A stretch of 57,402 nt of DNA, counting the filler, from Sphacelaria rigidula (lineage: Eukaryota), in the NCBI GenBank assembly GCA_964200075.2. It is 7 parts of 7 records of this genome, joined end to end, with 100 filler letters (N's around TTAATTAATTAA, not from the genome) between each part and the next. Parts side by side here need not be neighbours in the genome. Positions count along the whole stretch, not along the records: positions 1 to 8,115 come from CAXNAA020012247.1; 6 more parts are not named here. One strand, 5' to 3'. Both the position numbers and the translations under genes were made by a program. The notes beneath the pieces were generated by a model, which was given only the letters and a program-made list of their open reading frames with translations, ran no database searches and was not told the origin of the DNA. Every line of letters begins with the position of its first letter. The stretch's first letter is position 1. Positions 1 to 51,244 of this stretch are shown one piece after another.

Positions 1-400
1 ACTAAAATCAAGTAGTTTGCGGTTTCACCGCGGTACGGCAAACTTCATCGCACAAAGGCCAGAAACCTCACGCAGTTTTAAGGAGTTAGACCCTGAAATT
101 TTGCGCAACTATGCTTTGGGATATTACGCAACTTTGGATGGACGGTTTTTTTTAATTTTAAATTTTGTTGCCGTTTCACGGGGGTCCGCTTGGCTCGAGG
201 TTTCCCCCCAAAAAACTGGGACCCCCGAAAAACGGTGAAATGAGTCAAAAAGAAAAAACTTGACCATCAAAAGTTGCGTGATTACCCATAGAACATTTGT
301 GCAAAATTTCAGGGTCTAACTCCTTCAAACGGCGTGAGGTTTTGCCGATGAGTGTTTTTTCGGTGATAAACGTGAACCAGCCTGTAGTAGTTTTAAGTGG
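1..400. mobile_element. Foldback/MITE-like element with long imperfect terminal inverted repeats (left end cut by window edge)
   Basis: 62-150 (aaacctcacgc..aaggagttagaccctgaaattttgc..cgcaacttt) is the reverse complement of about 255-342. The ORF track mirrors this, with KELDPEIL on both strands. Confidence 0.75.
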
Positions 401-1592
401 GTACATTCCCAATTCTGCCCTTTGACACTCTATTACTCGTCGTTTTTGAACACAAGTATTTTCTTGGCTGCTATCACCTGTACTGTTTCCAGGACTTTGT
501 CTTCCTGTTTTTACACTCTTGGACAATAGCATCAAGCCTCAGTTTTCCAATCTTGGTATCTTTTGTCGGTGGCGGGGCAGCCTCTGTTCTCTTGATTCAT
601 CGATTGATTAATTGTCCGGTTAATTTGTATTTGGGCCGCGTCTGCTCGAGACCCCAAAAAAATCAGTGTCCAAAATCAGCTTCGCCTGTGATGGGTCTTG
701 GCGATATAACCCCTACCCCCCCCCCTCCGAATAAAAAACAGGAGATCGCGAACCCGATTTCTGGTAGCGGGCATCTGATTCCCGACAAGTGCCGTTGTGC
801 CTTTTGAAAACTAGTTGGGCTGTATAAGGAAGCACGTTCCTCGTCGGAGAACATCAAAGTGCGGCGTAACCCCTCTACTGTACTACTGATATTCTCAGTT
901 CCGCTGTACTACTAGCATGCTGAATTGCCATACAACATAGGTATTGTTCGATAATTCAAGATCAATCGCTCTTGGTTGAAGCAGTTTTGCCCTACATGAT
1001 TAAGAATACGTAAATCATCAATCATCGTGTTGGCGAGATGAGAGAGTGAGTAACGTCAGCAGCGTTCACGGTCCGTTGAAAGTTTTTGAATCTTTCCAGG
1101 AAAAGGCGTCATCGCCCTGAATGACGTCACCGGTGGACCAGGGATTTTCCACCAATCAGAAATTTACTTCTGAAACACGATCGATCAAGCAGAGAACTGA
1201 GGGCATCTTTCATCTCTCTACTGGCATGCTCCTCAAGAGACGCACCAGATCACTTCACTTGATAGAAAAGTGTACACTGTACTGCTGCTGTACAGGACTG
1301 TGCAACACTTTCATTGGCGGAGTTGATAGCGGCTGAGCTCGTGTGTCTAACAGTTGGATCTAACGCGAGGCCATCGCAGAAATGCAGGGATGTGGACACC
1401 AAACGAATAATGGGGAGAACATGGATCGGTCGCTAAGAAGCCGGCCATGATAAGATAGATGGACCTCACCAAGGTACAAAATAAATCAATGGAATAACCT
1501 TTGACTCGCTCTGTAACAAAACTCGAATAGCGACAAAGGACAACACGGGTAGAAGGAGAAGATGAGTGTACTGCAGTAACGTTGACACTTTT

Positions 1593-1723
1593 CCCCTAGT
1601 GTACGGACGTTGGGCCATGAGAAGGTAACCCGATTCCCAGGGCGCTGATTTCCCCCCTTCCGCGACCCGAATGTGCCGTGAAATCGTTTCGTACAGGCGA
1701 GGAAACGGTCGCTATACTAGGGG
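1593..1723. mobile_element. Small MITE-like element with ~20-bp imperfect TIR
   Basis: cccctagtgtacggacgtt ... aacggtcgctatactagggg. Confidence 0.45.
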
Positions 1724-1848
1724 ATGGATGGTGGCCACAAACGGCGAAACAGGAAGGGGATAAGTGATGTATAATTACTTTGCGTTATATATGGAAACAT
1801 CGTAATGATCGCCCAAATGTAGAGGTGTCTGTATCAGGAGTAGGAGCG

Positions 1849-1914
1849 GTGCTCCGTCTCGACAGGGATGCGTGGTCAATGGCCAAATGACCAAGGCAAG
1901 CAACAAATGAGTAC
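1849..1914 (+). repeat. 66-bp dispersed structured repeat, copy 1 (candidate structured RNA)
   Basis: Near-identical, same-length copies at 37831-37896 (+) and 49302-49367 (-), plus a degraded copy at about 27925-27985 (-). Confidence 0.85.
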
Positions 1915-2066
1915 GCGTCGAGCGCCGCCAACCGACCTAAAATCGGAATCGAGGAGAAACAAACCGGCACACAGAAAGATTGCATCAACCNNNNNNNNNC
2001 CTCCCACCCCCCACCAACTTTTCACGGCTCTTTTCATCGCTCGACCTGTGCTGCTTTCTCGCCCAG

Positions 2067-2209: not shown

Positions 2210-2605
2210 ACAAGGTTCCCCTTCGGGAGGTTGGTACTGGCCTCCCAGGGGTGACGCAAGTCGAAAATATATCAGTGCCATTTTTTTTCCATATTATGGA
2301 GGCATTTGTGTGGGAGAATATTTACCTTCCAGTAGATACTGTCACATTCCGCAGTTTCAATTGTCTCAGACCAAGAGTGGAGACCATCACGGGAAGAGGG
2401 GTGGGCACTTCCAGCATGAAAAGCTCGTATCACGGGCGGTGTGCGGAGGTGGAAAAAGCACCATCACGCACGAGACCCGTCACAGCACACATCGCAAGTG
2501 ATTGCTACTGTAAAAGGTCGCGTCCCGGTAGTACTCGGCGAACTTGTGCAGGGTTCTCTACATGCCGACCCCACCCCGCGCGCACGGATTTCAAATCACA
2601 CTTGG
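2210..2605. repeat. ~380-bp dispersed repeat (probable non-autonomous TE), copy 1
   Basis: Highly similar to 17719-18093. Ends ACAAG...CTTG(T/G). Confidence 0.85.
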
Positions 2606-3190
2606 TAGACCTTAAGAGATGTACGTGAACAATGAATGGTACTCGATTTTACTTTATTTTAGACTGAAGAAAGTTCTAAGAAAGTTCATGATTTGGGACA
2701 GGTGAGTAGTGGTGAGCAGTAGACCCAGCTCGTCCAGAACGTGTCTTGGTCCAGAGTTGGCTCAAAGGTGTCGATCTGAGCTCTCGCAACGCACACTTTA
2801 CTTAAGAAACACTCTTGACCCCCCTAGCCCGAGAGTTTTCGGTATGCCTTGGTCGGTGTTAGGGTTAGCGTTAGGGTTGGCGGCATCTACAGGGTATCAA
2901 CCATTTTTTACGTACATTTCTTCAGGTCCCCTCTGTGAAATACCTGCGTAGGGATGCATCCCCGTCACAAGGACATCTCTGTAATCCCTGTCACAAGAAA
3001 ACCCCTGCGCCGGTACTACACAGGTGCATCCTGTGAGGGAACTCTCTCTTACGGGTTGCATGATCACTGGGATTTTGGTACCCCCTGCGCTGGTCCTCCA
3101 CAACAGGTGACCCACAGCGGGGACGTTTGCCCACGTGTGTGCCTCGTTCAACTCGCCAACGGCTCATTGCACGGTCTTGTGTTCGCTGGT

Positions 3191-3594
3191 GACTAAGGCG
3201 AAGGCAGTGTTCAATTGTTTGTACTGCTTTTGCTCTCATGTTCTCGTGACATTCGCTGCATACCCGCCGTCTTCGTGCTCCCAAATCAACGAGATCTAAA
3301 AAGAATCGCGGTGAAAAAATACCCCGCAATGAACAGGCTTTTGTGATTCAATTTCCTGTTTGAAGTTTTCCATCGGCTTGAAGAGGCTTTGGTGGTTTGG
3401 GATCGACACCCCGCGAAAAAGAGCCAGTTTGACCGACTTTCGATGGCCAGAATACGCGCCACAGGTATCAGATGGCATCCAAATCTGAACATTAACATAC
3501 CGCTGCGCCTTCTTCGTGCGCTGTAAAGGAAGCGCGGGATAAAATGCCTTACTGTCAGAGAAAAATTGGCAAAAGTGGTGAAAAATGTGAAATG
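3191..3594. repeat. ~400-bp dispersed repeat, copy 1
   Basis: Colinear with 19232-19637 (gttctcgtgacattcgctgcata...gatcgacaccccgcgaaaaa...aaaaatgtgaaatg). Confidence 0.85.
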
Positions 3595-3978
3595 ATACAT
3601 GTACGTATAGGACATGATTATGGCACCCATTTCAGCTGTATAGACGTCTGGTAGTAAAGATCACCACTCAGCGAGTGTTGGGGAATAAAAGTGCACGCCG
3701 CAGCGAGTGGAACTATCAAAGCGTTTCAGCTTTCATGCAATGCTTAATCCGTCGTAAATGGCCGCTTCAGCAGGCGGTGTTGTCGATTCCAAGCTGCATA
3801 CTAGGCCATCCGATAGATCTCATCTCGGTTCGGTGTCGATTGATTGATTGTCGAACATTAACTGATCCCCAGAGGACCCAGCGGTGGTCATTATCCATAA
3901 CTATCCTAAAGGTGAAGAGAACGACAACACTCGCAAAAGGACAGTCAAGGTAGGTAAACATGAAAAAAAAGAACAAAC

Positions 3979-8215: not shown

Positions 8216-9204
8216 GGTATCGCCACTTCCAGAGACAGCCGCAGCTTTTATACTGCCTCACGGGTGTCTACGCGGGGGGGGGGGGAGAGAGGGGGGGGCG
8301 GGGCGTCCACAGGATCTCGGAGGGTTTTTCGTCGGGCACTCCTGTGTCACCCATGACTTTCAGCTCCTCAATGTGAGGGGTCGCATTTTCTACATTTCTC
8401 CACATTTTTGAAGGAGAAACAAGCCGAATAACGCAATTTTTCTCGCCTCCGGCGGCGCTCCCGCGGGGCCCCTTCACCAGCCGCCTGGGCCCCGATTGAC
8501 TGGAAAACAATCGATGTACTGGCTGCTGGCGCGGCCAGTTGACTCTTCACTGGTCAGAGCAGCCGGTTCACATTCCTAATTATTGCCCTTAACTCATTAC
8601 GAAATCTTTGCGTGCAGAGGTGATGTTTTTTATAGCGCCCTACTCATTCTTTAAACAAAATTTTAGGGGCCAACTTCAAATATTGGCCGACGAATGGGCC
8701 GTTTAGTAACCGGGTCGGTAGAAATTCGGAACAGTACTTTGCAGGCCACTTGCTGGCCAACGTTTGGTGTTTGTGTATTGAAATTCTGTGTGGGACTTCG
8801 CTGGAGTATAATGAACCGAAAGAATAAGCACGGGTTGATCTTTATATATATATATATATATATTCACTGGTTTGGGGTGTTCTAGTATCGTAACGGCCAC
8901 TCTTCTCAGGACAATGCCGGTCCGGCGTGAACCCGGCGTGCTTCGTCCCGGATTCGTAGGGGCGGACCCCCGATGGGGTTGACGTCGGTTGACGATGACG
9001 CTATAAAACACGCGACTCACGACGGAAGCTAGGCAACCAGGTCACCGTTTTTTTCTTGCGCGCTTGGGTTTTTTTTGCGGTAACCATGTCGGTAGTCGAG
9101 CTAGATCATATTGCGCGGCGTGGGAGAACCTCAACTCCGCACGATGAGGATGATCGTACCACGCAATGTGTAAATGGTGGGGCACCCATGAAAATGTCCA
9201 AGCC

Positions 9205-9460
9205 GTGGCTGTCTCTGGAAGTGGCGATACCAGACAGGAAAGCAAATCATTGGAGGCTGTCATCCAAATGCAAGATAATCAGTGGGCTTCGGGCCGAACA
9301 ATCTCAGCAGGATGCAGCTCACCCTTCATACGGCTCAAACACACCACGGCGCTTCGCGCTTGGTGATTGGGTGCATGCCTGGTCCGGCGAAAACCCGGCG
9401 TGGTCCGTCCCGACTTTGTGGGGATGCGAGGTCTTGACTATGGCATGCATGATCATTGAG
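9205..9460 (+). repeat. ~250-bp dispersed repeat family C
   Basis: Copies at 50680-50935 (+), 41075-41228 (-), 8216-8240 (-) and a partial at about 8915-8965. Shared tctggaagtggcgataccaga and cgcttcgcgcttggtgatt...cctggtccggcgaaaacccggcg. Confidence 0.85.
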
Positions 9461-10082
9461 TACATCCCCCATGGAAATGAAGGCCCCCATTTTTTTCAAT
9501 CAGCATACCTCCGTGGTTCTTCATGATGAGTTTCAAATCATAATTCCAAAAATTGAGCTAAACAATTGGGGTAAGGCGTGAGAGCAGTGTTCATGTACCC
9601 TCAAAACTCTCCTCGAGAAACGAACACCCCCCCGACAAGAGCTGTTTTTTCGTTACAATGTGTACCAGCGGTTTTCCATACAGATTTCATATCCAACTCT
9701 CGGAAACTGAGACAAGATATCCAGATTCAGGGCAGCTAGTGCCGCTGCTCGCAATACATCGATTCACGTTTGGAACCTTATATGCGCAATATCTCGAGAT
9801 AGATCACGAAATAGGTGAAGTTGAGGTGCCGTCTCCCCGTATTCCAAGGAATGTTCACACCAAAAATCGTCATCATCCGGTGAATGTAACGTTCGAGATT
9901 TCATTACTTGACATGGGGTTTCATCGACGAGAAAAATATTGGCCCAGACTTCTGAGCAGATGATCATCTTTCTCTTGTTCAGACGATTAGTACGATATGC
10001 GGATCACGGCCCAACTCGTCTGTGTCGATGAGATATCGCCTTGAGCGCTTACATCCGCGTCTAGGCTAGCCTAGCTCGTGAA

Positions 10083-17718: not shown

Positions 17719-18093
17719 ACAAGGTTGCCCTTCCGGGGGTGATGCAAGTCGAAAATATATCAGTGTTTTTCATTTTCCATATCATGGAGGCATTTGTGTG
17801 GGAGAATGTGTACCTTCCAGTAGATACTGTCATATTCCGCAGTTTCATTTGTCCCAAGCCAAGAGTGGTGATCATCACGGGAAGAGGGGTGGGCACTTCC
17901 AGCATGAAGAGCTCGCTTCACGGGCGGTGTGCGAAGGTGGGAAAAGCACAATCACGCACGAGACCCGTCACAGCACACATCGCGAGTGATTGCTACTGAG
18001 AAAGGTCGCGTACCGGTCGTACACGGCGAACTTGCGCAGGGTTCTTTACATGCCGGCCCCACCCCGCGCACACGGATTCCAAATCTCACTTGT
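17719..18093. repeat. ~380-bp dispersed repeat, copy 2
   Basis: Matches 2210-2605. Lies next to a (TA)n tract in an intron. Confidence 0.85.
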
Positions 18094-19231
18094 TTACGGT
18101 ATATATGTATGATACTGCTTGCTGTCTGTGTGTACATGGTGTACCACCCCTCGCTCCGCCAGCGGTCGGTGTTGCAGCTAAGCGTGCATTTTCCCGAGGT
18201 GGCGCACGCAGGAGTAATAGGCCGCCTCTGCCGCTATGATTCCTGCCTGTATCTTGAACGGAGCTGTATGGCAACACAGCCGCTGTGGCGCGCAAGCCCG
18301 TTTTGACAAGAAGTACCGCGTGAAGGTTTCTACACTGTCTTGAAGTGATACTGCGCGCAGTTCCCACTACGAGTATTTCGCACGTCGCAGTAAGCAATAG
18401 TTCCATACGGTGCACAGTGCATTATTTTCAATCGTATACTGACTGTAGAAAGCTCTTATCTAGGGTGTAATAAGCTTCCACACATATTAGGCGGTGAGAT
18501 CGTGAAATAATCCACTGCACATGACCGAAGTGGAAGTGAGGCAACCACCGAAATATTCACGTGCAAAGCCTGTGCGGCCGTACTCTATGTTGATAACGCT
18601 AGAAGAACACCAGCGCAACGAACATCCCGGCTGCCGGCCTGTTTGCACCGCCGTCCCCGTAGTGATGGAACTGTCTGCATCGGCATGTCGCCCCTAGTGC
18701 CAGGTACGCTGGGAAGGGTCCATGGCACTACCCACTGGTCGCGCGACAGGAGCTCAACCTTCGACTGTCGAGATTTTTGAAGCGGAAATGTCCAGCTCCC
18801 AACCCTGACATAGATAGCGGACCATAAACGATGCTTGTTTACTGGGTTTCTTCGAGCGTTCATCCATAACTGGGCGAATATTAATAATGAAGCCGCCAGG
18901 ATCCGTCGCAGCCTGCGAGCTCAACTGTCACTGTACCGACTATGGTCGTCATCAGACAGCAGGGTGGTGAAAAAATAGTATCCCACGCACCGTGGGTATC
19001 AACCGTATCAATGCAGACCGGGCCACCAGCGACTTCCCCTGCTGCAGCTGCGACTGTGACACCTTCCTCTTATACCAATCCACACATTCTCCAATGATCT
19101 TCGACATGCTTTTGTTGACTGTTGGGTTCGCATGACTGGGACTCACATAACGCAGATATGACAATGTTAGAGGCTTCACGTCGACACTTAAGAATAATGG
19201 GTCTCAGATCATTCGACTTGCGTTTGCTGCT

Positions 19232-19637
19232 GACCAAGGCCAAGGCAATGTTCAACTATTCTCAACTGCTTTGCTCCCATGTTCTCGTGACATTCGCTGC
19301 ATAACCGCTGTCTCCGTGCTCTCAAATCAACGAGAACGCAAAGAAAAACACGGTGAAAACATACCCCACCATGAACAGGCTTTTGTGGTTCAAGTTCCTG
19401 TTCAAAGGTTTCCACTATCTTGAAAAAGCTTCTGTGGTTCGGGATCGACACCCCGCGAAAAATAGCCAGTTTGGGCGACTTTCGGTGACCAGAACACGCA
19501 CCATAGGTATCAGATGGCACCCAAACGTGAACGGTAGTGTACCGCTGCGCCTTCTTCATGCGCTGCGAAAGAAAGCGCGGGATAAAATGCCTTGCTGCCA
19601 GAGAAAACTCAGCAAAAATGGTGAAAAATGTGAAATG
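19232..19637. repeat. ~400-bp dispersed repeat, copy 2
   Basis: Matches 3191-3594. Confidence 0.85.
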
Positions 19638-19682
19638 GTTTATGTACACATATATATACATACATATGGGTATGCATCATAC

Positions 19683-19770: not shown

Positions 19771-20257
19771 GTATGAATGAAAAGTAGTATATCAGCGTTG
19801 AAATAGAAGAGGAAAAAATATCATGTATCCGCGAAAGCGAGAAGAAACAATCACACGCACATAACGAAATCACATTCAGAGTGGGCTCTTCAGGGTGGGC
19901 GAGGATACGTCATCATTGAGCCATGACGTACATAACAAAAGAACCTGAAAAAAGTGAGGTTGAACACTCAAAGGGAGTTGAAGTCACCTTGCGAAAAGTC
20001 ACGTGTTACGTTGAACTGTTTTGCAAATAACAACCAACTGAGGATTTTTTTTTTTTTTGTGAAGCTTCCTATAGCTTGCCTCTTCGCGTATTGTTGCTTC
20101 GGTGTCTGCAACTCCTTTAGTACATTCGAAAGCCGCTTTCATCGGATTCCCTCATCTTGAAAAAAATAGTGCTCGAGTTTTGGTCCAGTCCTAGGAAACT
20201 TCGCAAGGGGCAGGGATTTTCCACCTGTGGAATTTCCTATTTGTCCATCTATAAACT

Positions 20258-20770
20258 GCCGCCGCACCCCGGTGGTGTAATGGTCCGACTGTCGCCATTA
20301 TGGTGGAGAGAACGAGGGTTCGATTCCCGATGCGTCGGGTTTTTTTTCGTAATATCTTATTACCACCGTGGAAAGCGTGAGAACGTGAGTGAATGAAGTA
20401 GTTGGCTGTGTTTGTTTGACGTGAGTTGACGCGGTGCGGGATTGTTTGGTCATGATCCAATCCGCGAGACTAAAGTGCAAGGAGTGTACCGGGGAGATTT
20501 CGTAATATCTTATTTCCACCGTGGAAAGCGTGAGAACGTGAGTGAACAAAGTAGTTGACTGTGCTTGTTTGACGTGAGTTGGCGCGGTGCGAGAGTATTT
20601 GGTCGTGACGATCCAATCCGCGAGACCAAAGTACAAGGCGTGTACCGGGGAGATATGAATAGGTTGATCCCTTGAGACCACGGACTCAGCTCGAGGGAGG
20701 GGATGGGTTAAAAATGCGACAAATGAATAAGAAATGAAATAACACGAAAGAAAAGGAATTAAAAGAAAAG
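20258..20770 (+). mobile_element. tRNA-derived SINE family B with an internal ~150-bp tandem duplication
   Basis: A-box-like tggtgtaatgg and B box ggttcgattcc. The body unit ttcgtaatatcttatt..ccaccgtggaaagcgtgagaacgtgagt..tgtaccggggagat occurs twice. A-rich tail. Confidence 0.8.
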
Positions 20771-21953: not shown

Positions 21954-22796
21954 ACAGGAGGGGATCGTTCCAAACGCTCAATCATCACAAGCGCATCATT
22001 ACTGGTTGCTAGTCTGCAGCTTCTCGCGTGTGACACCAAAGCGAACGACCACTGCCATGACGCGTGCCCAGCTCGGAGAACCGTCAAGGAGGGGGTACTG
22101 AATGTGAATAGAGGGCAATGAACAAAATGGGTGTATAGTAGCAGATTGGCGCGAAAGGGCCTGATGGGCACGGAGGGGCCTTTCCCAACGACAGCATCAA
22201 GAGAGGGGGTATACCCCGACGCTCATTGCCAGAAAGTGGTACAGTTCTTGAGGTGCACGAAGTGCCCCTCACGAGTCATCAATGCCGTAATCACCGCCGC
22301 CTTTTTTTTGGTTCAATACGCGGTTATAAACAAACAGCGTAGCCTAGGGAAGCGCGTCAGGGCGAAAAAAATAGAGCGATAGTCTTCTGAGCCCGCGTGT
22401 TGAGCCCCCCCCGTTTGATGTGCTCACTTTTGGCGCAACTTCGAGGAGGAGGACGGGGTACCCCTTTTTGTTCGAGGCCGTTACGGCCGAGAAGGCTCCT
22501 CCGCCGAAATTTATTATTTTTGTCTGTCCGCCCTTCATCACGAAGCTCCGAGCCATGCACGTTTTTGAGCCATATTAAGTCGAAGCCCCGCGGCGCGAGA
22601 CAATCATCCTACGGCCCATCTATGATCGCTCTACATGCCCTCACCAAGTGTCAGCACTTCATTGGGGCTCCCGGGTCTCTATTTCGACCGTGTGTTATTG
22701 ATGCACGGAACGAACAAATCCAGTCCGACCTTGTTCGAGGGGTATCGTCAGTCTTGGTTGTCGTAACTTGAATCGAGGCAATTTTCGACGGCTAAT

Positions 22797-23090
22797 GCCG
22801 CCGCGCCCGGGTAGTGTAATGGTCCGACTGTCGCCATTAGGGTCGAGAGGGCGAGGGTTCGACTAACGATGCGCTAGGAGTATTCTTCGTGATATCTGAT
22901 TTCCACTGTGGAAAGCGTGAACGCGTGAGTAAACGAAGTAGTCGACTGAGTTCGTTTGACGTGAGTTGACGCGCTTCGGAAGTGCTGGCCCAATCCGCGG
23001 GACAAGAATGCAGAGCGTGTGCTGGGGAGAGATGGGTTGATCCCTTGAGACAAAGTGCGACAAACGAATGGTAATAAATAATAACAGAAA
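22797..23090 (+). mobile_element. tRNA-derived SINE family B (single body unit)
   Basis: gtagtgtaatggtccgactgtcgccatta...gagggttcga. Body and 3' end match the 20258 copy. Confidence 0.8.
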
Positions 23091-26611: not shown

Positions 26612-27509
26612 CTACAGGATGGAAGCTTGAAATAACTTACTTCACTGCATGCATAAAAGGATGTCGACTAGCAGAGGGTCCACAGTGGTGGTCAAACTCA
26701 CCTGTGCTGTGCAGCAAGAAAGCATTCAATAGTTTCCACAGGCGCATATTTGGAGAACACGGAATAATATTTTCAGCCTCTACTTCAAACAAAAAAGCAG
26801 GAACGAGTTATAGAAAAAGAAAGTAGGAGCGTGGTAACCATGGGTGAAGCCTGGCGGTACGCTGACTGTGAGCTCTCAGAGCAAAAGTAAAAACCTTGTA
26901 ACGGAAGACCGGTACGTCCAACCCTTCGTTATATGAACTCGAACGCTTAACCTCTCGAACTATATAAAACTGTATATTCAACCATTCGTTCTAGAAACTG
27001 CGCGATTGACCTCTACGTACAACCTTTCGTGACTAAAGACCTTCACGTCTGACGAAATCGTATGTTAGCACAAGATAGACTGCACGTCTACTTTAATTCA
27101 AACTGAATAGTAGATCGAAAACGACCAAGATGAGCTGCCACGTTTTGTCCTTCCTCTTGCTTGACAAAACCCAAAACAGCAAAGCAAACAAAAACGTAAT
27201 TCCATTGTCTTGCATGTGTCATTTTAACTTTCAACACCTCCCGGTCAGCAGCGACACAACACGTCCAATTCCGGCAACAACTACAACAACGTTGGTCGAC
27301 ACGACCGGTCGCTACACGACTGTGGACCACATCGCTTTGCAAGCATCACCAACCATGGAGCCGGAAACACTGCACATGCTGTTGTGTTGTTGAGAGTCCG
27401 CCGCGAACGCCCTCGCGATTCCTGGTTTCTGATGTGCTCCCGAACAGGTTGTTGTGTAGACAACGCTACAACTACTCCTACAATCCCCGGTCCCGCCAAG
27501 ATAGAAACT

Positions 27510-27700
27510 TCCGTGGGGCGTGGGAGGGGGGGGGGGGGGGGGGGGAAAAAAAAAAAAAAAAAAAAACAAAAAAAAAAAAAAAAAAGGGAAAGGCAAACCC
27601 CCGACCTCCAATCCCGGCCNNNNNNNNNNCCCCACCCCACCCACCCCAAAACCACAAAGAAAGAACCAAAAAAAACAGAAAGGGAGAGAAGGAGGAGAGA

Positions 27701-27737
<37 letters not shown>

Positions 27738-28055
27738 AACATATCTATAATAACATAGCCAAAAACGAAAGTAGGCACGAACCAAACCAATTGTACAGAG
27801 CTAATGGCTTTGTGCGAAGACTGAGACACAAAACCAAGGAGTAACACCCTGCCTAAAAGATCGAACGTCCTTCCCATAAAAGCATTATCGTAGGGGAGGG
27901 CGCGCGCGGGGGGGGGGGGGGGGCGTACCTATTTTTTGCCTCCCTTAGTCGTTTTACCATTGACCACGCCTCCGTTTCGGAGAGGGGGGGGGGGGGGGGC
28001 GACGTTGTTCGGCGTCTCGCGGCCGGTCGGCGTGTTGGCGCGTCCCGCCCGCGGG

Positions 28056-28088
<33 letters not shown>

Positions 28089-28090
28089 CT
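27510..28090. other. Low-quality homopolymer-rich (poly-G/poly-A) sequence around a gap
   Basis: Very long G and A runs, a 10-N gap at 27620, and a corrupted copy of the 66-bp repeat. Confidence 0.7.
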
Positions 28091-29677
28091 ACTGCATACT
28101 GTACGTGCCGCTCTCTCAGCTCAAACGTGTAAGCAGGGGTCGTGACAATCCATCACCATTTGATTCTGGCGAAGATGTGTGAGTTTGACATACTGTACAA
28201 GAAACCCTGTCTCCCATCCCCAAAAGCCAAGAGGACAGCTGACGGGAATATGGCCTATGCCCCCCTCACTATGCCCCCATGCCCCTCCCTGCCCCTTCCT
28301 CCATTTTCACCGAGACAGAATACGTATGCTACAACGGAGCGGAAGGGGAGGAGGGGAGGGGAGTGAAAAGGACTATCACAGACGCCGTACGTAGTGTGTA
28401 TTTCCACTCTTTGTCGAATCACTTCTGGCTTACAAGAGGAACATCAACAGTCAATTCACCCCCTGTGACGCCCGCTGTTGCTTGTTCGTTCAGCGTGTTT
28501 GTCCGTACAAGAACATTGGTGCTCGCTCGCTGTTATGAAAACTATATGAAGGGATTCTGAGGGAGTTGTCCCGTACCTATCATACGCATTACTCAACGGG
28601 AGCGGTTTCGAAGGGAAACGTGAAAGTGTCAACACACACACATATATAAACATGCAAAAAACGTCATGCATGGCCACGTTACAATTCATGACCGACGGCT
28701 TCATCGGTAGGCACTACTGCTGTTCGGCATGCGATGAAGGATTCTCTGTGAACACTACAAAGCAAAATCCCTCGTCAAGCACGTATTTTTTGGTGGGTCA
28801 CACGCCATGTTGGGCGGTTCCCATTTCCATCAACAAATGCACGCGCGGAATAAAATAATCGCTCGCGCTCTATGCGCATGTTTTATCACTACTGCAGTAC
28901 ACGCACAATTGCGTCAAAATTCTACAGCCGGTACGATGGGGTGCGTATCCCTATGCATGGCATGTACTTCCACAAGAGAAGATAAAAGGGAAACCCGCCA
29001 CATGACAAGGTCCGAAAGCCGCTGGCGGACGGTCTTTCGCTCGACGTCTGATCCTGTGCTTCAAACGTATTTCAGAGTGTGTTGGGGGGAAGGTGCCGCC
29101 ATTGACCCTTTCCTTTTCAAAAATGGTCGTGGTGAGTAAGCGTGACCTGGGATACCCTGGGCGGTGGACGCAATACCCGAGTATTCGATAGTACGTTAGG
29201 TACCAACTGAGAAATACCTACAAAGTAATCGAGGGTAGTTACCCAAAAAGATGGATACCCGTACACGCCCGCGCGCCCGCGCTCGTTCCCGATCCCAGTA
29301 TTTGCTTAGCCTGTGCGAACCGCATTTGGAAAGAGAGACAGACGACGTTGTCTGACGCACGGCGGTGCATCGCGTGTGCAGACAATTGTGCCCACCCAAT
29401 CCGATACTGCGCCAGCCGTCGGACGCTTGATATAAGCCGGACCAAAAAAATGAAGTCGAACTCTCGAGCCCGCCACACGACCGTACCCCGTCATAATCCA
29501 CCATCTTCACCCATGCACCCTCTCTACATCTGAATGTGGAGTTCCCACTGTACTGCACTATCCAGTACAAGTCAGTTCACCCGGAGAAAGAACCATGGAG
29601 TATATACATTTTTCATACATAGCATGATCACAAGATGACAACGCGAGAACCCCGAGCTGACTGCTCGGCGGCACCGT

Positions 29678-30361: not shown

Positions 30362-30645
30362 CAGGGCTATACACGTTACACGTGCCATAGCATTACACGT
30401 TACGTTCACGTTACTTTTTGGCCGAAACGTAACGTTAACGTAACGTTAATTTTTTTTAACCTGATGAACGTAACGTGAACGTAACGTTAAACGCCCAAAT
30501 ATAACGTTAACGTAACGTTAATTGTTTTTAACCTGATGAACGTAACGTGAACGTAGCGTTGAATCTTCGAACGTAACGTGAACGTTAATTTTTTCGTACG
30601 TGATAAACGTAACGTGAACGTGAACGTGTAACGTGTATAGCCCTG
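30362..30645. mobile_element. hAT-like MITE: 22-bp perfect TIR (CAGGG...) filled with AACGT/ACGTT subterminal repeats
   Basis: cagggctatacacgttacacgt / acgtgtaacgtgtatagccctg with dense taacgtgaacgtaacgtt repeats inside. No 8-bp TSD found. Confidence 0.8.
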
Positions 30646-31552: not shown

Positions 31553-32011
31553 GTAAGTTGTGCAGTTTCTAGTTCCCCTTCCGTATCTATCTGTGATCTC
31601 GCTTAGTCGATCCAACCTACGCCGATGCTCACCAAAACGGTCAGGTGATCAAAATTCTCCCCTGTTTTTTTTATCGCCTGACCGTTTTTTGTTGAAAAAC
31701 CGTGTTTGGCCAAAAGTAAAAGTGCGGCCAGCGGGAAATGTAACGTTGCCCTGGAACGGTCTCAATGAGTAGAGCAAGTCACTCCGAGGCGTCAACAACC
31801 GCCTAGCCCTTTTTTAGGCGTAAAACGACGGAGAAGGACCAAAAAAGCAGTTTTAAACAAGATATTTGAACGGCTCCCATTATAGAGTTGGCCGAACAAA
31901 TTGTGTTCTTTGTTTTTTTAATTTCTTATTTCCTGTCTGCAGTTCCACGATTTCGGAGAAGAAGAGAGCTCGTCAACTCAGTGCAATAAGGCTCATAAAG
32001 CAGCTAGGACA

Positions 32012-32304
32012 CACGGGTGGCCACTGGGGTCTGTAACCTGGCCATTTTGGGACCTTATCCACCTTTGATAAGGTCCGCGGATTGGGTAGACAACTGAAGA
32101 GTATTCGCACAGCATGGACAGGACCGAAACAAAACATGTCCCAGTCTATAGGCGGGTGACTCCCCTGTAGACTGGAATATGTTTTGCTTCGAACTTGTCC
32201 ATGCTGTGCGAATGCTCTTCAGTTGTCCACCTAATCCGGGGACCTTACCAAATGTGCATAAGGTCCCAAAATGGACAGGTTACAGACCCCAGTGGCCACC
32301 CGTG
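32012..32304. mobile_element. 293-bp near-perfect palindrome (foldback MITE, CAC...GTG termini)
   Basis: Arms of about 140 bp are reverse complements with almost no spacer. Flanked by CA on both sides. Confidence 0.9.
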
Positions 32305-32760
32305 CAGCCTCTATCCTTCGTGACCGTCAACCCCCCCAATACGAATGCCACCGTCAACGAAGGGTAGACTACATACTTCCTCTGTCCTATAAGTGAAGGT
32401 ACCTAAATTTGTACGGGCCCTTAACGATGTCCGATCGTTTTTTTTTATTATGAACTCTACGGTGTTTTTTGAGTTAAGAAAATGTGTTTAAAATTTGCAG
32501 CTCGTGCATGAACCATGCCGCCGAACGTCTGCAAGAAAAGTAGTCGGCCCAAAAATGGCTGTTTTTTGCCCCTTTCCGAGGGGAAAAAAAGTGTCGAACT
32601 AAAAAAAAATCACCCCCGCCTTCACTGGGGCTTGCTGCCAGGAAGTCCCACGCGATTTAAAAAAAAAAAACAATCGACGCTTTTTTTCCCCTTTGGTGGG
32701 TTAAAAAAAAAGCCCGTTTTGGTGCGAATACTTTTTTTTTTCTATTAAAGGGCAAGGTTC

Positions 32761-32999: not shown

Positions 33000-34059
33000 T
33001 CATTTGGACGAAGGGGAGATGCAGATCCTAATCTGGTTGCCGTTCGTTTGTGACGGCTGACAGCATTTGCGCCATCGTATGGTTGACACGTTCCGTTCCA
33101 CCGTTCGTTTGGGGGTGGTACGGACTTGTAAAGATGCGGTGGGAACCCGAATGTGCACTGACCGCAGCAGAAAGTTTGCCAGAAAATTGTTGGCCGTTAT
33201 CGGACAACAATGTCCGGGGCACACCCCATTATGGCATGTAGTAATACACAAGGAAATTGGCAGTGCCCTCTGCGGAAACGTTGGTTCCAGAGACAGCATG
33301 CATGACGGCGTGGCGACTGAATCGATCAGTGATCAACAAAATGTAAATGTTGCCACTTCCCGTAAGAGGCAACGGTCCGAAATATTCCCAAGCTATAACT
33401 TCAAGGGGCCCATTGGGAAGCGGCATGGACATAACTGGCCAACGCACAGTCTGGCGAGACGTCTTGTGTGCCTGACAAATCAAAGAACGACGTACCCACC
33501 AACGGACACATTGATCGATACCTATCCACCAGTAGAATCGCTCGATGAACTGGGTCGTCCGAACTGTACCCAGATGGGTCGAAACGTTGCAATGGCACCC
33601 GTGCAGAACCCATGTTTGCATCAGCATTGGCACGTAAATGGGAAGAGGTTCTTGACCGAATAATGGAGCATATCTACCGGTAGGTCGGTCGGACTGAGGT
33701 GTCCACGTGGGTTTGCTGATCAAGAGTACAATACCATCATGATCCATGTCCAGTTTGTCTTTGCGGGCCAGCTCAACAGCTTCATCCTGTGTGGGTACCT
33801 GGCGCTGTCCGACAGATTTTAGAATATTCGCGGAGGGGAGTGGGAGGGGGCAATTTTGGGACAGGTAAAGTATCGCTGCGCGGCACACAGGCTTGGCTAT
33901 TTGTTCTCGCGCCCAACCTTGGCTGGAAAACAAGCTTAATCTTTCTTTTTGTTCACCGTCGACATTGGGGCCAAGGAGACAGTCGTAGGCATCGTTCACA
34001 TTGTCTGTTCGACTGCCACCCTCGGAAGGTAGGGCATAAGGGGGGGTATACTCCGACAA
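33000..34059 (-). pseudogene. Gypsy integrase (HHCC zinc finger plus DDE core), frameshifted
   Basis: ORF 33229-34059 continues into ORF 33028-33222 in another frame. One Cys of HHCC and other conserved residues are mutated. Confidence 0.9.
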
Positions 34060-35867
34060 TAGATCAGTACCTGCAGATTCGGCATCGCCAAGACATTAGT
34101 TGGGAGTGGAAAGCTCTGGGACAGCGAAGTCACTGGTACTGGAGAGGTCATTCATCGGAGCATCGTCCTCCGCGGATTCGTCGATCGTTGGCAGGCCAGC
34201 AGGAGGTGATCTCGCCCTAGGCGCTGATTTTTATCGACGTGGTTGGGGTGGGGCAAGAAAAATCGCCGGCACCGGAACTGGGGACGGCGGGGGAAGATTA
34301 GGTCCTGAAACAGCGGCGTGAGCGGCGGCTTCTGCCGCTCTGCGATCCCGCGTTCGACTAGAAATGAGATCGCGCACTTGTCCAGGAAAAACATATGGGG
34401 AACAGTGAGCTGCGGTACGGCGGCAACACTGATGCGGCGGCCTGTCACTCCGAAAAGGATTATATCCGAATATGGTACTTGCATTGGTGTTTGTATTCCA
34501 AGAAACCAGATGAAGGGATCGAGGGGGCAAGCCGTCGAGCGCCGCTTTCGGGGCAGAGGGTGTCAGCCCACCCATGCTTAAATCTGACGCCTCGGTGTCA
34601 GCCCACTCATGCTCAAACCCGGAGTCTCGGTGGAGGCGTACGCGGATGATCTCCGCCGCAAGGTAGCTATTTATGACTACTTCTACCTGATCAGCCAGCA
34701 GCGGGGTTCGTGCGATACGGGCGTGTGGTGATGGGGGGCGTTCCTCATAGCATGTTGATCTTAAACGGGGTCATCGTGCATCGACCTAAATCTAGATGTG
34801 GGGTGAAAAATCACGCGGCATAGCGGATCAAAACATCCAGAAGTTTGTCGATGACCGCTGCAGTCCAACGGGCACCGTCGAGATTGGAGATGATGTAACA
34901 GAGGTGTGATGGAACGTCATTCCATAGCCGCAAAAAACTTGCTCGCTGCTCAGGCTGGAAACAATCCAAGAGTTTTTGAGGAATGTCGGTTTCCGCATCG
35001 TCATCCGACGCGGTCACAAACATTGTGTCAGCTGAGACTGATCCATTACAGTCAGCATTTTGCTCGAAATCAGTTGGGGAAGTGGTATTGGTGCGGGGAC
35101 ATATCAGACAGAGGTGTACGTAGAAGCGGAGCCGAAGCATACCCCAACGACTCGAATCAATCCGGCGACGTCAGAAAAATCGTGACGTCCGTTCTTCACA
35201 AATACATCTTTCTGTCCGAACGTATGTGATGATGGAAAACGCAACCAGCTATTCTCTGCCCACCAAAACATCGAATGACATGGCATTGTGTGGAACAATC
35301 AAAACCCAAACCGAAGGTTGTGCCATGGGGTGCGTAACACAGAAACGCTGAACACTTAATCGCACAGCCTGGGTGGTACTCAAAAGTAGAACCTGACCCG
35401 AAGCCACCGAAGTCGCGTGGGGGGCACAAGGGACTGACATTTGTCATCGGCCGCACCCGTGCGGAGCATGTCCTTCCAGCAACTGGCGGTGGGAAAGGTC
35501 TGAGGTGAGCCCGAGTCCGATAATACCAGGGCCATAAGTTGATGGCTTGCACAAGATCCACTATGAAGTCCAATTCTAGTTGTTAAGAACGCGTCGTCCA
35601 ACTTGACAACGCCACTCGTAAGATCCGGGCCAATTTCTGGCAACGAATCGGTATGTGTTCGCTGTACCTTCTGAACTTTAGTACTGAGATATACTCTGAG
35701 GTGGTCTTGTGGGACCTGGGGATGTGGGCACTGGTTTCAAGTGTTTTCCAATGTTGGGGCGTCAGGGCTACGTATATCGTAAACCGCTTTGGGACTATGG
35801 GGGGTGCGACTATAGTGGTGACCGTCGTGGTAGAGGCGGGGTCGACTGTGATGTCGCCAGGGGGGGG

Positions 35868-36078: not shown

Positions 36079-37830
36079 GGGGGGCATGCACTACCGGCTT
36101 GGTAGTGGATGTCCCAAGTGCGGGGTCGGCAGAAAGTTCAGCCTTGCACTGCGATGTGTCTGCCGAATCATGTACAGTGGTGGACAAAAGGGGCGACTAG
36201 TTTTCGCCGTCGGACGTGGTTCCAGTGCCTACATCAGCGGAACTCACGTCCGAAACATCAACATATGCATTGGAAATAGACATGGTCACCTCGGATTTAT
36301 CGGGAGACACGTTGTCGGGAGCCAAACTTGGAACCACAGGGGACGAATCGTCTGTTACCCGCATGAGACTGTCGTGGTGTGAGGTCGCCAGGGGCAGACC
36401 CGCACGTGAAGGCGACAACGAACCGACAGTAGGTAGGGTGGACTTGTGGCTCAACACGTTCCGCCTCGACCGCTTTGTTGGTGCTGGCTCAGGGCACCCC
36501 GCTGTGCAGTTGTACCAAGCCCCGGCGCTTCCCGTTTCCACAGCATCGGGGAAAGCACGGAAGAAGGCTGTGCTCAACTCCTGGACGCCAACCTCACGCC
36601 GCACGAGTGTGAGACTCCGCCGGCGCATGCAGGGAAGAGATCGCTCGGGCCTCAGGGGTCCGGCGGACATCGTCTGGGGTCTCGGGGGCGGGCATGCATA
36701 CAGAGGAGGACCAGGCGCGATGGCACTGGGTTCACCGGACTGTGCGGTGCATTTCACGAGCGGCTGCTCCAGACCTTCGATTGTGCCGGGGCCTCGGCTA
36801 GCCATCGTGTGGAGGCGGGCGATGCTGCTTCACCCTTCGACTTCGTTGCCGGCGTCCGCGCCAGCAAGGTTGGGACGGATGCTGACGATACTACAGACCA
36901 ACGTCAATGACGTCCGCACACGGCGGTCGCGGAGGAGGGAAGGTGATCGGCATCACGCAAAACACAGCAGCTTGCCGCCCGCTGAAAGGCAGCACTATAC
37001 GCCCCTGTGGACTGGAGTACGACGTCTGAAAACGCACAAACGCCCACGACGAAAGCCAATATTGTTGTCAACCTATTTGAACACGCACACATCGACCCCA
37101 CAGGGAGGATCAATCGTCTTCTGTGAGTGTGTGACCCATCGACGGCCGACGAACACAGGTGCAAACGCAACTGCAAATACGCCAAGGTAAGGAAGGAATG
37201 TCATCCCATACTGTGTGGGTGAAAGGGGCCGTGCGATCCGGCTATCGACGCGCAAAGCGTACCGATTAGCGAAGGGTTGGATTAGTGATGGCGAATGAAG
37301 TGGATCCCAGGGGTGACAGTGGCGACGAAGCAGAGGCGACTTCGGATATAGACTGTGAGTGTTGTAGCAGCATGTTGTCGGAGGAGTCATGTGCTTCGTA
37401 CGGAGACACGGGCCAGGACGTACTGGAATGGTACTTACACCGGATGAGCGATGTGTAAGAGAGTGGTCAACGCACAGGTATGCTACCAAAAGCTTTGGTG
37501 AAGCAGGTTCCCGTCAATAGTCATTTGCCTCCGTCCCCCTTCGTTTCTTTTATCCCCGGACCCGTACACCAACCGCAATCTAGGAGAATACTTGTTCTGT
37601 TCGATATTTATTGGATGGATGGGGCTGCGATGGGTTTGCAGTAATTTTAGTGTTGAAATATGTGATTTTGTTGGATGAGGGGAGCACAATGTTGTGGCTG
37701 TCGTGTATGGTATTGGAGGCTGGCTGCCGATGAGTGAGCAACGGGAAACCAGACCTCGTGGGAGTTTCGCGAGCATGCTGCATCCGATTCATGCCTATTT
37801 CCGGTACTATCGTGAGGTATGTCTCCTCCC

Positions 37831-37896
37831 CTGCTCCGTCTCGAAAGGGGTGCGTGGTCGATGGTCACACGACCAAGGCAAGCAACAAATGAGTAC
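37831..37896 (+). repeat. 66-bp dispersed structured repeat, copy 2
   Basis: Matches 1849-1914. Confidence 0.85.
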
Positions 37897-39533
37897 GCCC
37901 CCTCCCCCTCCCCAAGGGCTAGAAAGGAACACGATTCAGGCTCGTCGACACTCTGTGCGTCCATTCATCACCGTGTGCGCTACATTTCGCCTCAGGTGCA
38001 ACAACAGCGGAGAACCCCGACTGTGACGCTGCCACGGGTTGTATCGCGGATGGGTGAAGACTATGTACACCGTAGGATGTAATCTTGTGTCATTCAAGGA
38101 TCGGTTGTCCTTCACATTATGCGCTTGACATCTCCGTGCAATATCTGCACATGTGTCCGCGGCGGCGGCGGTGGAGGGGCCGACGGGCGCGATTTCCTCT
38201 AGGCTTTTTTCCCATAGAAAGTCCGAGGGTTTGTTGAGCATCGAACGACGCCGGCGCATCGTGCGTTTTGATGTGGGCGGTCGACATTGTATCGAACAGC
38301 TTGACGACCTGAACTTCCCGCCGCTATGAAGGATACAGTGGTCATACCTGTACCATCAGAGTATTGAGTGTTGAGGGCAGGTGTTCTTCCTGCGGACACT
38401 GTGCGTTATTTCTTGGGATACCGGCACTTGTGCAGACTCCGCCAATATCTTCCTCCCTGGAAATTGAAAAATAATCCGACGCTAGATTGCGAGAGTCATG
38501 TGTTCCCGTTCCAAAAACAATGTATCATTGACGTCACCTCTTGAGTTGTCATATCATACTAGTCTTTTGGCTTCATCTTATATTCGGTGTGGATTTCGGG
38601 GATGTGTGCGGTGAAGATCCCGACCACAACGGGGCTGGTACCAGCTGGACAAGATATGTTATGAAAGTTTTTTGCCGGCGTTGTTCTATGTACGTGTTTC
38701 AGTTATTACGGAACTGTAATATCCGACAAAGCTCATTTCTTTTTCTTTACAAAGTTCGCCGCAATTCCTACCGTGAAGTCTCGATCCCAAGGCCACTGGT
38801 GATGTGTAATAGATGTATCTTATTGGCTCCTGGTATTTCGCTGTCGAGTTTCAGCCGACAAGAGGGTTGGGCGGATGCTGGCACCTCCGAATGACGAGCT
38901 TCATTCGTCGACACCGTTCTAAAAGACCTTGATAACCCTCGCAACACTACTTTGTTTGTGGCCGAACCCGCCTCTCCATAACAGGGGCAGTCACTCTAAC
39001 AGAAGTATTTTAGACTCGAGCACCGCTGCGTTTCGTGTACGTGGCAGTTTCGATTACGGCCGAAGTTGCAATTCCAAAAACAAACCATCAAGTTGTTGGA
39101 AAAAACAAACGGCCTGTTCTTCTTTGAGACAATTTCATGTTATTTTGTTGGGAAAAAATCGTGTCTTTTTTGCTTAATGTATGTTATTGAGTTGACCACT
39201 TCTTGCTGAGAGAGCAATTTCGGTCACGAATAGAACCGTGACATAACCCTCAATCGGAAAAATCGCTGTGGAACGGTATCAAGGAAGATATCCAATCGTT
39301 CCGAGAGGTCAACATCCGTCTAAACCTCATCTTCGGGATAATTACTCATGTAAGAGCCAAAAAAGCGATTTTCAACGAGATACTTTCTTACACGCGATAA
39401 GTGACCAAAGATAGATTTTTTTCATGGGTACACCAGAGAAATACGAAACGAAGGCCTTCGTAAAACCTGACATTCGTGAAGGCATCGGCTGAATATTTCG
39501 CGTGGACAAAGACCCATACTGAGTGCGCGAGGA

Positions 39534-41074: not shown

Positions 41075-41228
41075 CAGGCTCGCACTTAGTCACCAAGTGC
41101 GAAGCGCCGTGGTGTGTTCGGCGAGTCGCATGAAGGATGAGCTGCATCCTGCTAAGATTGTTCGGCACAAAGCATCTTGCATTTACAGCCTACAATGAGT
41201 TGCTTTATTTTCTGGTATCGCCACTTTG
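41075..41228 (-). repeat. Dispersed repeat family C copy
   Basis: Reverse complement of 9213-9381. Confidence 0.8.
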
Positions 41229-41271
41229 GGGGGGCCTCCGTGTCCGACAAAATTATCTCGACAGACCCTTG

Positions 41272-49288: not shown

Positions 49289-49301
49289 GGTTGGTGTTTT
49301 C

Positions 49302-49367
49302 GTGCTCATTTGTTGCGTGGCTTAGTCATTTGCCCATTGACCACGCATCCCTTTCGAGACGGAGCAC
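49302..49367 (-). repeat. 66-bp dispersed structured repeat, copy 3
   Basis: Reverse complement: gtgctccgtctcgaaagggatgcgtggtcaatgggcaaatgactaagccacgcaacaaatgagcac. Confidence 0.85.
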
Positions 49368-49599
49368 AAGCATGAAGGGAGGGGGGGAAGGAAAGGAGAG
49401 GGAGCAACAAAGTGTGAACTCGTTTGCTGCCGCCATGTGCAATAGTTGTGCTCGTAAGCCCCCATCACGCGAGCGGGCGACATCGCGGGACCGTCTGGAG
49501 CACTATCATCAGCACGGAGTTTTTCCCCTCCTAACTATCAACCATGGCAATTTTTCGCTGCTCACCACCCGTCGCTAACGCCTGCGGGTCTGCACACAT

Positions 49600-50679: not shown

Positions 50680-50935
50680 TTCTGGAAGTGGCGATACCAG
50701 AAAATGAAACAACCCATTCGAAGCTGTCGTCCGTATGCAAGACGTTCAGTAAGCTTCGGGCCAAACAATCTAAGCAGCATGCAGTCCACCCCTCATGCGA
50801 CTCGCCGAACACATCACAGCGCTTCGCGCTTGGTGATTGCAAGCCTGGTCCGGCGAAAACCCGGCGCGGTCCGTCTCGGCTTTGTAGTGATGTGAGGTCA
50901 ATGGTCTTATGACTACGGCATGCAAGATCATAAGC
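50680..50935 (+). repeat. Dispersed repeat family C copy
   Basis: Colinear with 9213-9460. Confidence 0.85.
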
Positions 50936-51244
50936 ACACTTCCCCCCCCCCCCTCCCAGCGTTCACGAAAATTGTGTACCGATCCCCTCTATCAAGGAAA
51001 TTATTGCTTAACCCTGTGGCCGCGAGGGTAGGTCACCTTCTGAATCGGCATCAATTTCACTTGAAAAATATGCGTGATACGGATGGACTACCCGCATCGC
51101 GGTCTAGGGATCAACACACTCACGGGAGAGAACATCTGCAAAACCCAAGAAGTTGGAATGCATCAAAGATGCTTATAAGATGGGGTAGTAGAGTCCGAGT
51201 ACGGGTAATCTGACTTGTCGACACTCCACAGGTTGTCTCAAATA

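Follow-up and report, generated by a model that had tools for sequence, protein, structure and literature searches.

A 66-nt repeat of the brown alga Sphacelaria rigidula as the likely 3' end of an abundant C-tailed LINE family

Results

The window considered here, i.e. the whole stretch of DNA that was analysed (57,402 nucleotides of Sphacelaria rigidula, filler included), is composed of seven pieces, each ~8.1 kb long and separated from the next by N/TTAATTAATTAA linkers, and it contains many repeats and few long ORFs. Among the repeats is a short unit, hereafter the module, that is present in three clean copies of 66 nt, at positions 1849-1914 (+), 37831-37896 (+) and 49302-49367 (-), with a mutual identity of 86-91%, and in a decayed fourth copy at 27925-27979 (-). 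All four had been reported in a preliminary description of the window, which read them as a candidate mobile structured RNA, and their presence was confirmed; the chance expectation for an exact 67-mer, as estimated from 100 shuffles, is 0. Two diverged modules missing from that description were found as well, at 9401-9463 and 50867-50937, each forming the end of a repeat of ~255 bp.

The same description held that every clean copy was exactly 66 bp long, that the flanks of the copies were unrelated, and that neither a tail nor target-site duplications (TSDs) accompanied them. The copy at 1849 contradicts the first two of these points, being the end of a 248-bp front-truncated copy of a LINE (1669..1916, +) that comprises the last ~80 codons of the element and has in-frame stops in translation. 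Within it, the module (1849-1914) carries the stop codon of the family, TGA, at 1908-1910 and is followed by a G at 1915 and by 11 C in the next 25 nt, with no clean C run. Its upstream flank, as far as ~1669, is LINE coding sequence common to four loci from outside the window (L001-L003 and L005, see below), all of which thus resemble the copy beyond the module itself. When compared with the full-length relative described below (contig L015, encoding the protein P0011), the copy is 85.7% identical to the 3' end over the last 223 nt (blastn) and matches protein residues 1300-1382 (tblastn). Given the match to the L015 3' end at this identity together with the in-frame stops, it is a dead, front-truncated LINE copy.

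In the other copies only the module is present, usually embedded in C-rich sequence. The copy at 37831..37914 (+) consists of the module (37831-37896), a G at 37897 and a C-rich tail at 37898-37914, with C-rich sequence also immediately upstream (37822-37830), and its match to L015 begins at module position 2. On the opposite strand, the copy at 49301..49400 (-) runs from 49367 down to 49302 and then to a G at 49301; on the element strand it is preceded by a C-rich tract (49373-49400), only 12 nt of the piece remain downstream, too few for a tail to be read, and the match to L015 begins at module position 1. The decayed copy (27907..27996, -) retains module positions 12-66 at 27979-27925, has a C run on each side, and shows 79% identity over 57 nt, with a match to L015 that starts at module position 12. 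A further trace of the LINE, at 382..492 (-), corresponds to the interior of the same ORF, with 80.5% identity to L015 over 113 nt and a tblastn match to residues 1077-1114; it is the remnant of a separate insertion in the opposite orientation.

Several other features of the window deserve a record of their own. Very long G runs (up to ~32) and A runs are found at 27508-27591, 27688-27753 and 28045-28102, around a gap of 10 N; the G runs are on the strand opposite to the C runs of the decayed module, and may represent either stacked C tails of RTE-X insertions or assembly-prone homopolymers. A repeated unit at 20257-20654 and 22796-23031 has a first part of ~78 nt that is tRNA-derived in look, with a T-arm-like GGTTCGATTCC box; ARAGORN reports no tRNA there, and possible readings of the unit are a tRNA-derived SINE and an array of pseudo-tRNAs. 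An ORF at 33229-34095 (-) contains an integrase H2C2 zinc-binding domain (E=5e-10) and probably represents a piece of an LTR retrotransposon or of some related element. The window also holds a near-perfect palindrome at 31993-32323, with two 165-nt arms that are 84% complementary and 1 nt apart, a ~1.4-kb repeat of an unclassified element in two pieces (2238-3609 and 17726-19652, 82-90% identity), and three tandem units of ~70 nt built of AACGT-type short motifs (30421-30631).

A degenerate pattern of the module was searched for in marine metagenome contigs, viral contigs and genome contigs. The metagenome scan gave three true loci, all in marine contigs (L001-L003), and one chance match (L004), while the viral contigs yielded no true match (L006-L008 are chance 17-mers). 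Among genome contigs there was a single one, of 5259 bp, assigned to a "bacterial" MAG (locus L005; L015 as the whole contig), and a profile scan of 401 genomes of the phylum of that MAG matched one of the 401, namely the same MAG. The contig is evidently eukaryotic. A second LINE-like frame, open over 754 aa, was noted in the same MAG (L016, G001:C51:1-1933), so that this bin holds at least two contigs of eukaryotic transposable elements.

The contig L015 contains a single frame of 1382 aa without stops (P0011), in which an endonuclease (Exo_endo_phos, residues 193-415, E=8e-11) precedes a reverse transcriptase (RVT_1, residues 763-1012, E=7e-32) and a Cys/His motif is found near the C-terminus; the closest solved structures are LINE-1 ORF2p and R2 proteins. 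The element is at least 5.2 kb long, with an ORF of 4.15 kb, and this ORF crosses the 66-nt module and ends at a TGA within it, beyond which there are four bases, a G and then 13 C. Since the reading frame passes through the module to its TGA and a C run starts five bases further on, the module is the terminal part of a LINE, comprising its final 20 codons, the stop and the 3' end. The stand-alone mobile structured RNA of the preliminary description therefore has to be given up, the unit being a fragment of a longer known transposable element whose endonuclease-reverse transcriptase ORF runs across it. As a separate observation, a module-like stretch in inverted orientation is present at ~4735-4800 of L015 on the element strand, ~500 nt before the ORF begins. 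A 12-nt part of it exactly matches the beginning of the module in reverse complement, and the stretch could be an old inverted insertion or a part of the 5' region.

One may still consider a free-standing structured RNA or a small self-cleaving ribozyme that spreads independently of any protein-coding element, a notion that would sit well with a strand-specific fold and with module-only boundaries that are sharp at the base of the closing stem. That the unit is the end of an endonuclease-reverse transcriptase ORF speaks directly against it, as do the structure searches: Rfam, whose library includes hammerhead, HDV-like, twister, pistol and hatchet families, gave no match at gathering score in the whole window and none at E<=10 in 1750-1990, and by inspection only, the order of the helices is unlike the nested double pseudoknot of HDV-like ribozymes. 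A tRNA-like reading was dropped, as ARAGORN found no tRNA gene in the window. We therefore regard the free-standing RNA as very improbable, and of the two options named earlier, a "ribozyme-like or retroelement-recognition module", it is the second that fits, in the sense of a retroelement 3' end common to autonomous and non-autonomous families, whereas the ribozyme is unsupported.

The relatives of P0011 tell us how far the coding part of the module is conserved. Homologues of its last 250 residues occur in Ectocarpus sp. and in Sphacelaria rigidula, and its reverse transcriptase region has 242 relatives at E<=1e-10. The protein relatives of P0011 in Ectocarpus sp. have 64-69% identity. An ending of the type G[CR]VVNG is present in 16 of the 23 fetched relatives whose reverse transcriptase identity is ~44% or more, always shortly before the stop (within 45 residues of the C-terminus) and behind a hypervariable low-complexity linker; the remaining seven are mostly predictions cut short at the C-terminus, and the motif was not found in relatives at 43% identity or below. 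Forms that read through the stop continue in a proline-rich sequence, as expected from the C run that follows it. Such conservation of a C-terminal peptide could be explained by a role of the protein, and this brings in an alternative for the module as a whole: it could be simply a coding remnant, in which the likeness among copies comes from recent bursts and from protein constraint on the LINE C-terminus, the three-way junction is incidental, and the module-only copies are extreme 5' truncations that later multiplied or were duplicated as DNA between C tracts.

The ~255-bp repeats bear on this alternative. The first of them (9214..9470, +) is a non-autonomous, SINE-like element that ends in a diverged module (9401-9463) followed by 5 C, its last ~63 nt being the module with a 9-nt deletion in hairpin 2. 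The second (50681..50958, +) has its module at 50867-50937, 77-78% identical to that of L015, and a 12-C run in the tail; of the third (41075..41231, -) only the 5' part is seen, a piece boundary preceding its module. The family has a fixed 5' start and shares with the LINE (L015) only the module, at 70-78% identity; no Rfam match was found at E<=10 in 9150-9520, and an ORF over 9214..9470 had no Pfam match. By inspection, the stem of hairpin 1 is kept while its loop is 5 nt longer, so that the LINE reading frame would break; five of six and three of six pairs of the closing stem are kept, and one copy is without hairpin 2. A mere coding remnant is not what one would expect to be retained by a non-coding family that keeps nothing else of the LINE, still less with a frame-breaking loop.

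As to the third claim, that of a missing tail, a C run of at least 5 follows within 25 nt in eight of ten copies examined, versus 2% of random 25-mers from the window, and all three module-only copies have C-rich sequence upstream as well. With C-rich sequence on both sides of these copies, exact TSDs are not delimitable inside the homopolymers; no 5' junction from a full-length copy was found.

The abundance of the family was assessed from Logan contigs of two DNA-type runs (X1 and X2), which were aligned to 1400-1990 at a likeness of at least 82%. There were 20,037 matching contig pieces in X1 and 17,628 in X2, and the summed depth, which does not equal copy number, was ~7.3 million (X1) and ~5.9 million (X2) over the module, ~1.5 and ~1.2 million 100 nt upstream of it, and ~40 in the unique flank. 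Loose ends in poly-C occur behind 1913-1916 (141-582 contigs per position entry) and before 1847-1849 (135-147 contigs), among the entries listed for the two runs, and among the joints listed, 1914/1916 is connected back to 1848-1855 with 2-7 C in between, which implies tandem module-(C)n-module arrays. The LINE is present as very many front-truncated copies. Most copies of the module are young, and likeness alone is no proof of selection. The 5' ends of module-only units cluster at module positions 1-2, adjoining C runs, rather than being spread as the extreme truncations of a coding remnant would be.

A short, dispersed and at times tandem repeat may also call to mind a MITE (miniature DNA transposon) or a piece of a satellite. 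Terminal inverted repeats are absent, however, and a single shared end and strand relative to the reverse transcriptase ORF, a homopolymer tail and 5' truncation are hallmarks of reverse transcription, which leaves this explanation with hardly any credibility.

The fold of the module was re-examined on both strands. The three-way junction proposed for the element strand is the minimum-energy fold in two of the three clean copies, and to this extent the proposal stands, but covariation is unproven. The fold z-scores of the three clean copies are -1.39, -0.77 and -4.13 on that strand (+0.27, -0.03 and -1.77 on the opposite one), so that, by the customary threshold, the first two copies are no more stable than shuffled sequences, in line with a fold that is incidental to a coding remnant. 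The loop difference in hairpin 1 (GACA/GAAA) and the A-U to G-C swap in the copy at 37831 are present as described; the swap is a genuine compensatory change, although it is confined to one copy and is no general feature of the population. Across a set of eight sequences (seven distinct), which is underpowered and partly fed by the misaligned decayed copy, three pairs have changed on both sides, two of these coming from the decayed copy, whose 5' part is a C tract. The proposed structure pairs in 92.9% of cells versus at most 47% with slid partners, the structure having been drawn from the same sequences, and RNAalifold picks another hairpin 2. This preference, along with the single genuine compensatory change, likewise favours the coding remnant.

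Variation within the population points the other way. The variant table covers the module up to 1888, ending before its 3' third, and in module positions 1-40 it contains five variants with a share of at least 5%, at positions 15, 35, 37, 38 and 40, all of which fall in hairpin loops or in a loop-closing pair (P=0.007-0.04, simple binomial). Three of the five alter the amino acid, and no four-fold-degenerate stem site is among the variants listed; common variants that mostly change amino acids and lie in loops are not what protein constraint would predict. Against the fold, position 40 is C in 71% of the summed depth, and its partner (position 30) has no listed variant of at least 5%; this pair, which closes the loop of hairpin 2, therefore appears to be mismatched in most copies. 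Taken together, the fold is plausible and the variant pattern suggestive, with covariation unproven, and we consider the coding remnant possible but unlikely.

Discussion

With a probability of roughly 0.9, the 66-nt unit forms the 3' terminus of a non-LTR retrotransposon with a single ORF and an APE-type endonuclease. This element most likely belongs to the RTE-X clade, an assignment that is based on shared anatomy and host group rather than on an alignment or tree; a clade search of P0011 in Atlas returned generic EN-RT clusters only. The repeat is thus real and was rightly spotted, but it was misread, and it belongs to a known kind of element that has already been described in a related alga. 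In Ectocarpus, seven RTE-X families with 16,418 copies make up 3.41% of the genome (PMC12477816, Genome Biol 2025). According to that paper, RTEX-1_Ec32 has a "single EN-RT ORF; (C)n 3'" and a C-rich TSD, RTEX-2_Ec32 has "(C)n termini/TSD", and the non-autonomous RTEX-N1_Ec32, of 607 bp, "can be present in tandem" and is annotated "60 bp 3' end 83% RTEX-1/RTEX-2".

The element described here resembles RTEX-1/2_Ec32, as far as these are described in that source, in its single ORF, in which an APE-type endonuclease at the N-terminus precedes the reverse transcriptase, and in its (C)n 3' tail, seen both in the copies with a downstream C run and in the poly-C loose ends; its length (at least 5.2 kb in L015) compares with ~5.5-5.9 kb in Ectocarpus. 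The ~255-bp family in turn corresponds to RTEX-N1/N2_Ec32 as characterised there, i.e. short non-autonomous families of obscure 5' origin that have a ~60-bp 3' end in common with the LINE, and tandem arrangement and a brown-algal host are further points of agreement with the Ectocarpus families. Where the source gives a C-rich TSD, one sees here C-rich flanks in which duplications are not delimitable. Unlike what would be expected of the same element, P0011 is only 64-69% identical to the Ectocarpus sp. protein, and the likeness to the Ectocarpus families is one of described anatomy, the identity between module and consensus being presumed from it rather than read from an alignment. A stop codon inside the shared module, a three-way junction and bare 66-nt units between C tracts are not mentioned in the available part of PMC12477816. 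Our literature search gave no other relevant account of poly-C-tailed retrotransposons, and none for an 18-nt string of the module; a preprint on Ectocarpus subulatus and a paper on Saccharina contain general statements on LINEs only.

Short 3' ends shared between autonomous and non-autonomous elements are familiar from "stringent" LINE/SINE pairs, such as UnaL2/UnaSINE1 of the eel, in which the common 3' tail is recognised by the reverse transcriptase of the LINE. As in such pairs, it is the short structured 3' end alone that is shared here, and front-truncated copies are seen, recognition by the reverse transcriptase being putative in our case. In contrast to them, the module here includes the stop codon and the 20 codons before it, and a C homopolymer takes the place of a short tandem repeat as the tail. 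LINE-1, on the other hand, carries out target-primed reverse transcription with a homopolymer tail and needs no specific 3' structure. The present element is similar to it in having a homopolymer tail that is able to anneal to the nicked strand and, as it seems, a target or TSD rich in the same base, but poly(A) is a post-transcriptional addition, and a C tail has to come from a template or be renewed when the element integrates. Finally, self-cleaving ribozymes are known from retroelements, HDV-like ones at the 5' ends of R2 and L1Tc and hammerheads in Penelope-like elements and retrozymes. Like these, the module is a small structured RNA within a retroelement and its fold is sharply bounded at one end, yet it has no covariance-model match and no identified conserved catalytic core, and it is located at the 3' end, not the 5' end.

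We infer that the element would be copied through target-primed reverse transcription. Its endonuclease would nick G/C-rich targets, the G run of the nicked strand would anneal to the C tail of the RNA, and the reverse transcriptase would enter at the folded module, recognising its three-way junction with the closing stem GUGCUC/GAGUAC; the fold would most likely serve as the 3' recognition signal of the enzyme. The C-rich tail would be templated, and any RNA ending in the module and a C tail would be mobilised, from short non-autonomous elements down to the 66-nt unit on its own. Several routes could lead to the recurrent 5' boundary of the module-only units next to C runs: they may descend from a single truncated master, be joined at the 5' end through G/C microhomology whenever the reverse transcriptase copies a C tract lying upstream, or result from jumps of the enzyme from one short RNA template to another. 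An origin of that boundary by processing or by a ribozyme is unsupported.

A bolder scenario can also be drawn, which we consider improbable when taken as a whole. Here, the module plus C tail would be a self-sufficient, minimal retrotransposable RNA, whose 5' end is formed by RNA processing exactly at the foot of the closing stem, through self-cleavage or a cut of the RNase-P type on an end made of the stem, a single G and a C run; the C tail would be renewed, either at the RNA level or through slippage of the reverse transcriptase, jumps of that enzyme from each such short RNA to another would give rise to the tandem arrays, and the last 20 codons of the LINE would serve a dual use and be selected mainly as RNA.

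Conclusions

The finding is mostly one of correct annotation, by which a "structured RNA repeat" becomes the 3' end of an abundant C-tailed LINE family. For specialists in transposable elements, three details are of interest: the stop codon and last 20 codons lie inside a module that is copied by non-autonomous elements; the C-terminal motif is conserved past a hypervariable linker, down to ~44% reverse transcriptase identity; and 66-nt units on their own, whose 5' boundary is recurrent, are found flanked by C tracts and in tandem arrays. In combination, the three details provide a compact system for asking how the RTE-X reverse transcriptase chooses its template.
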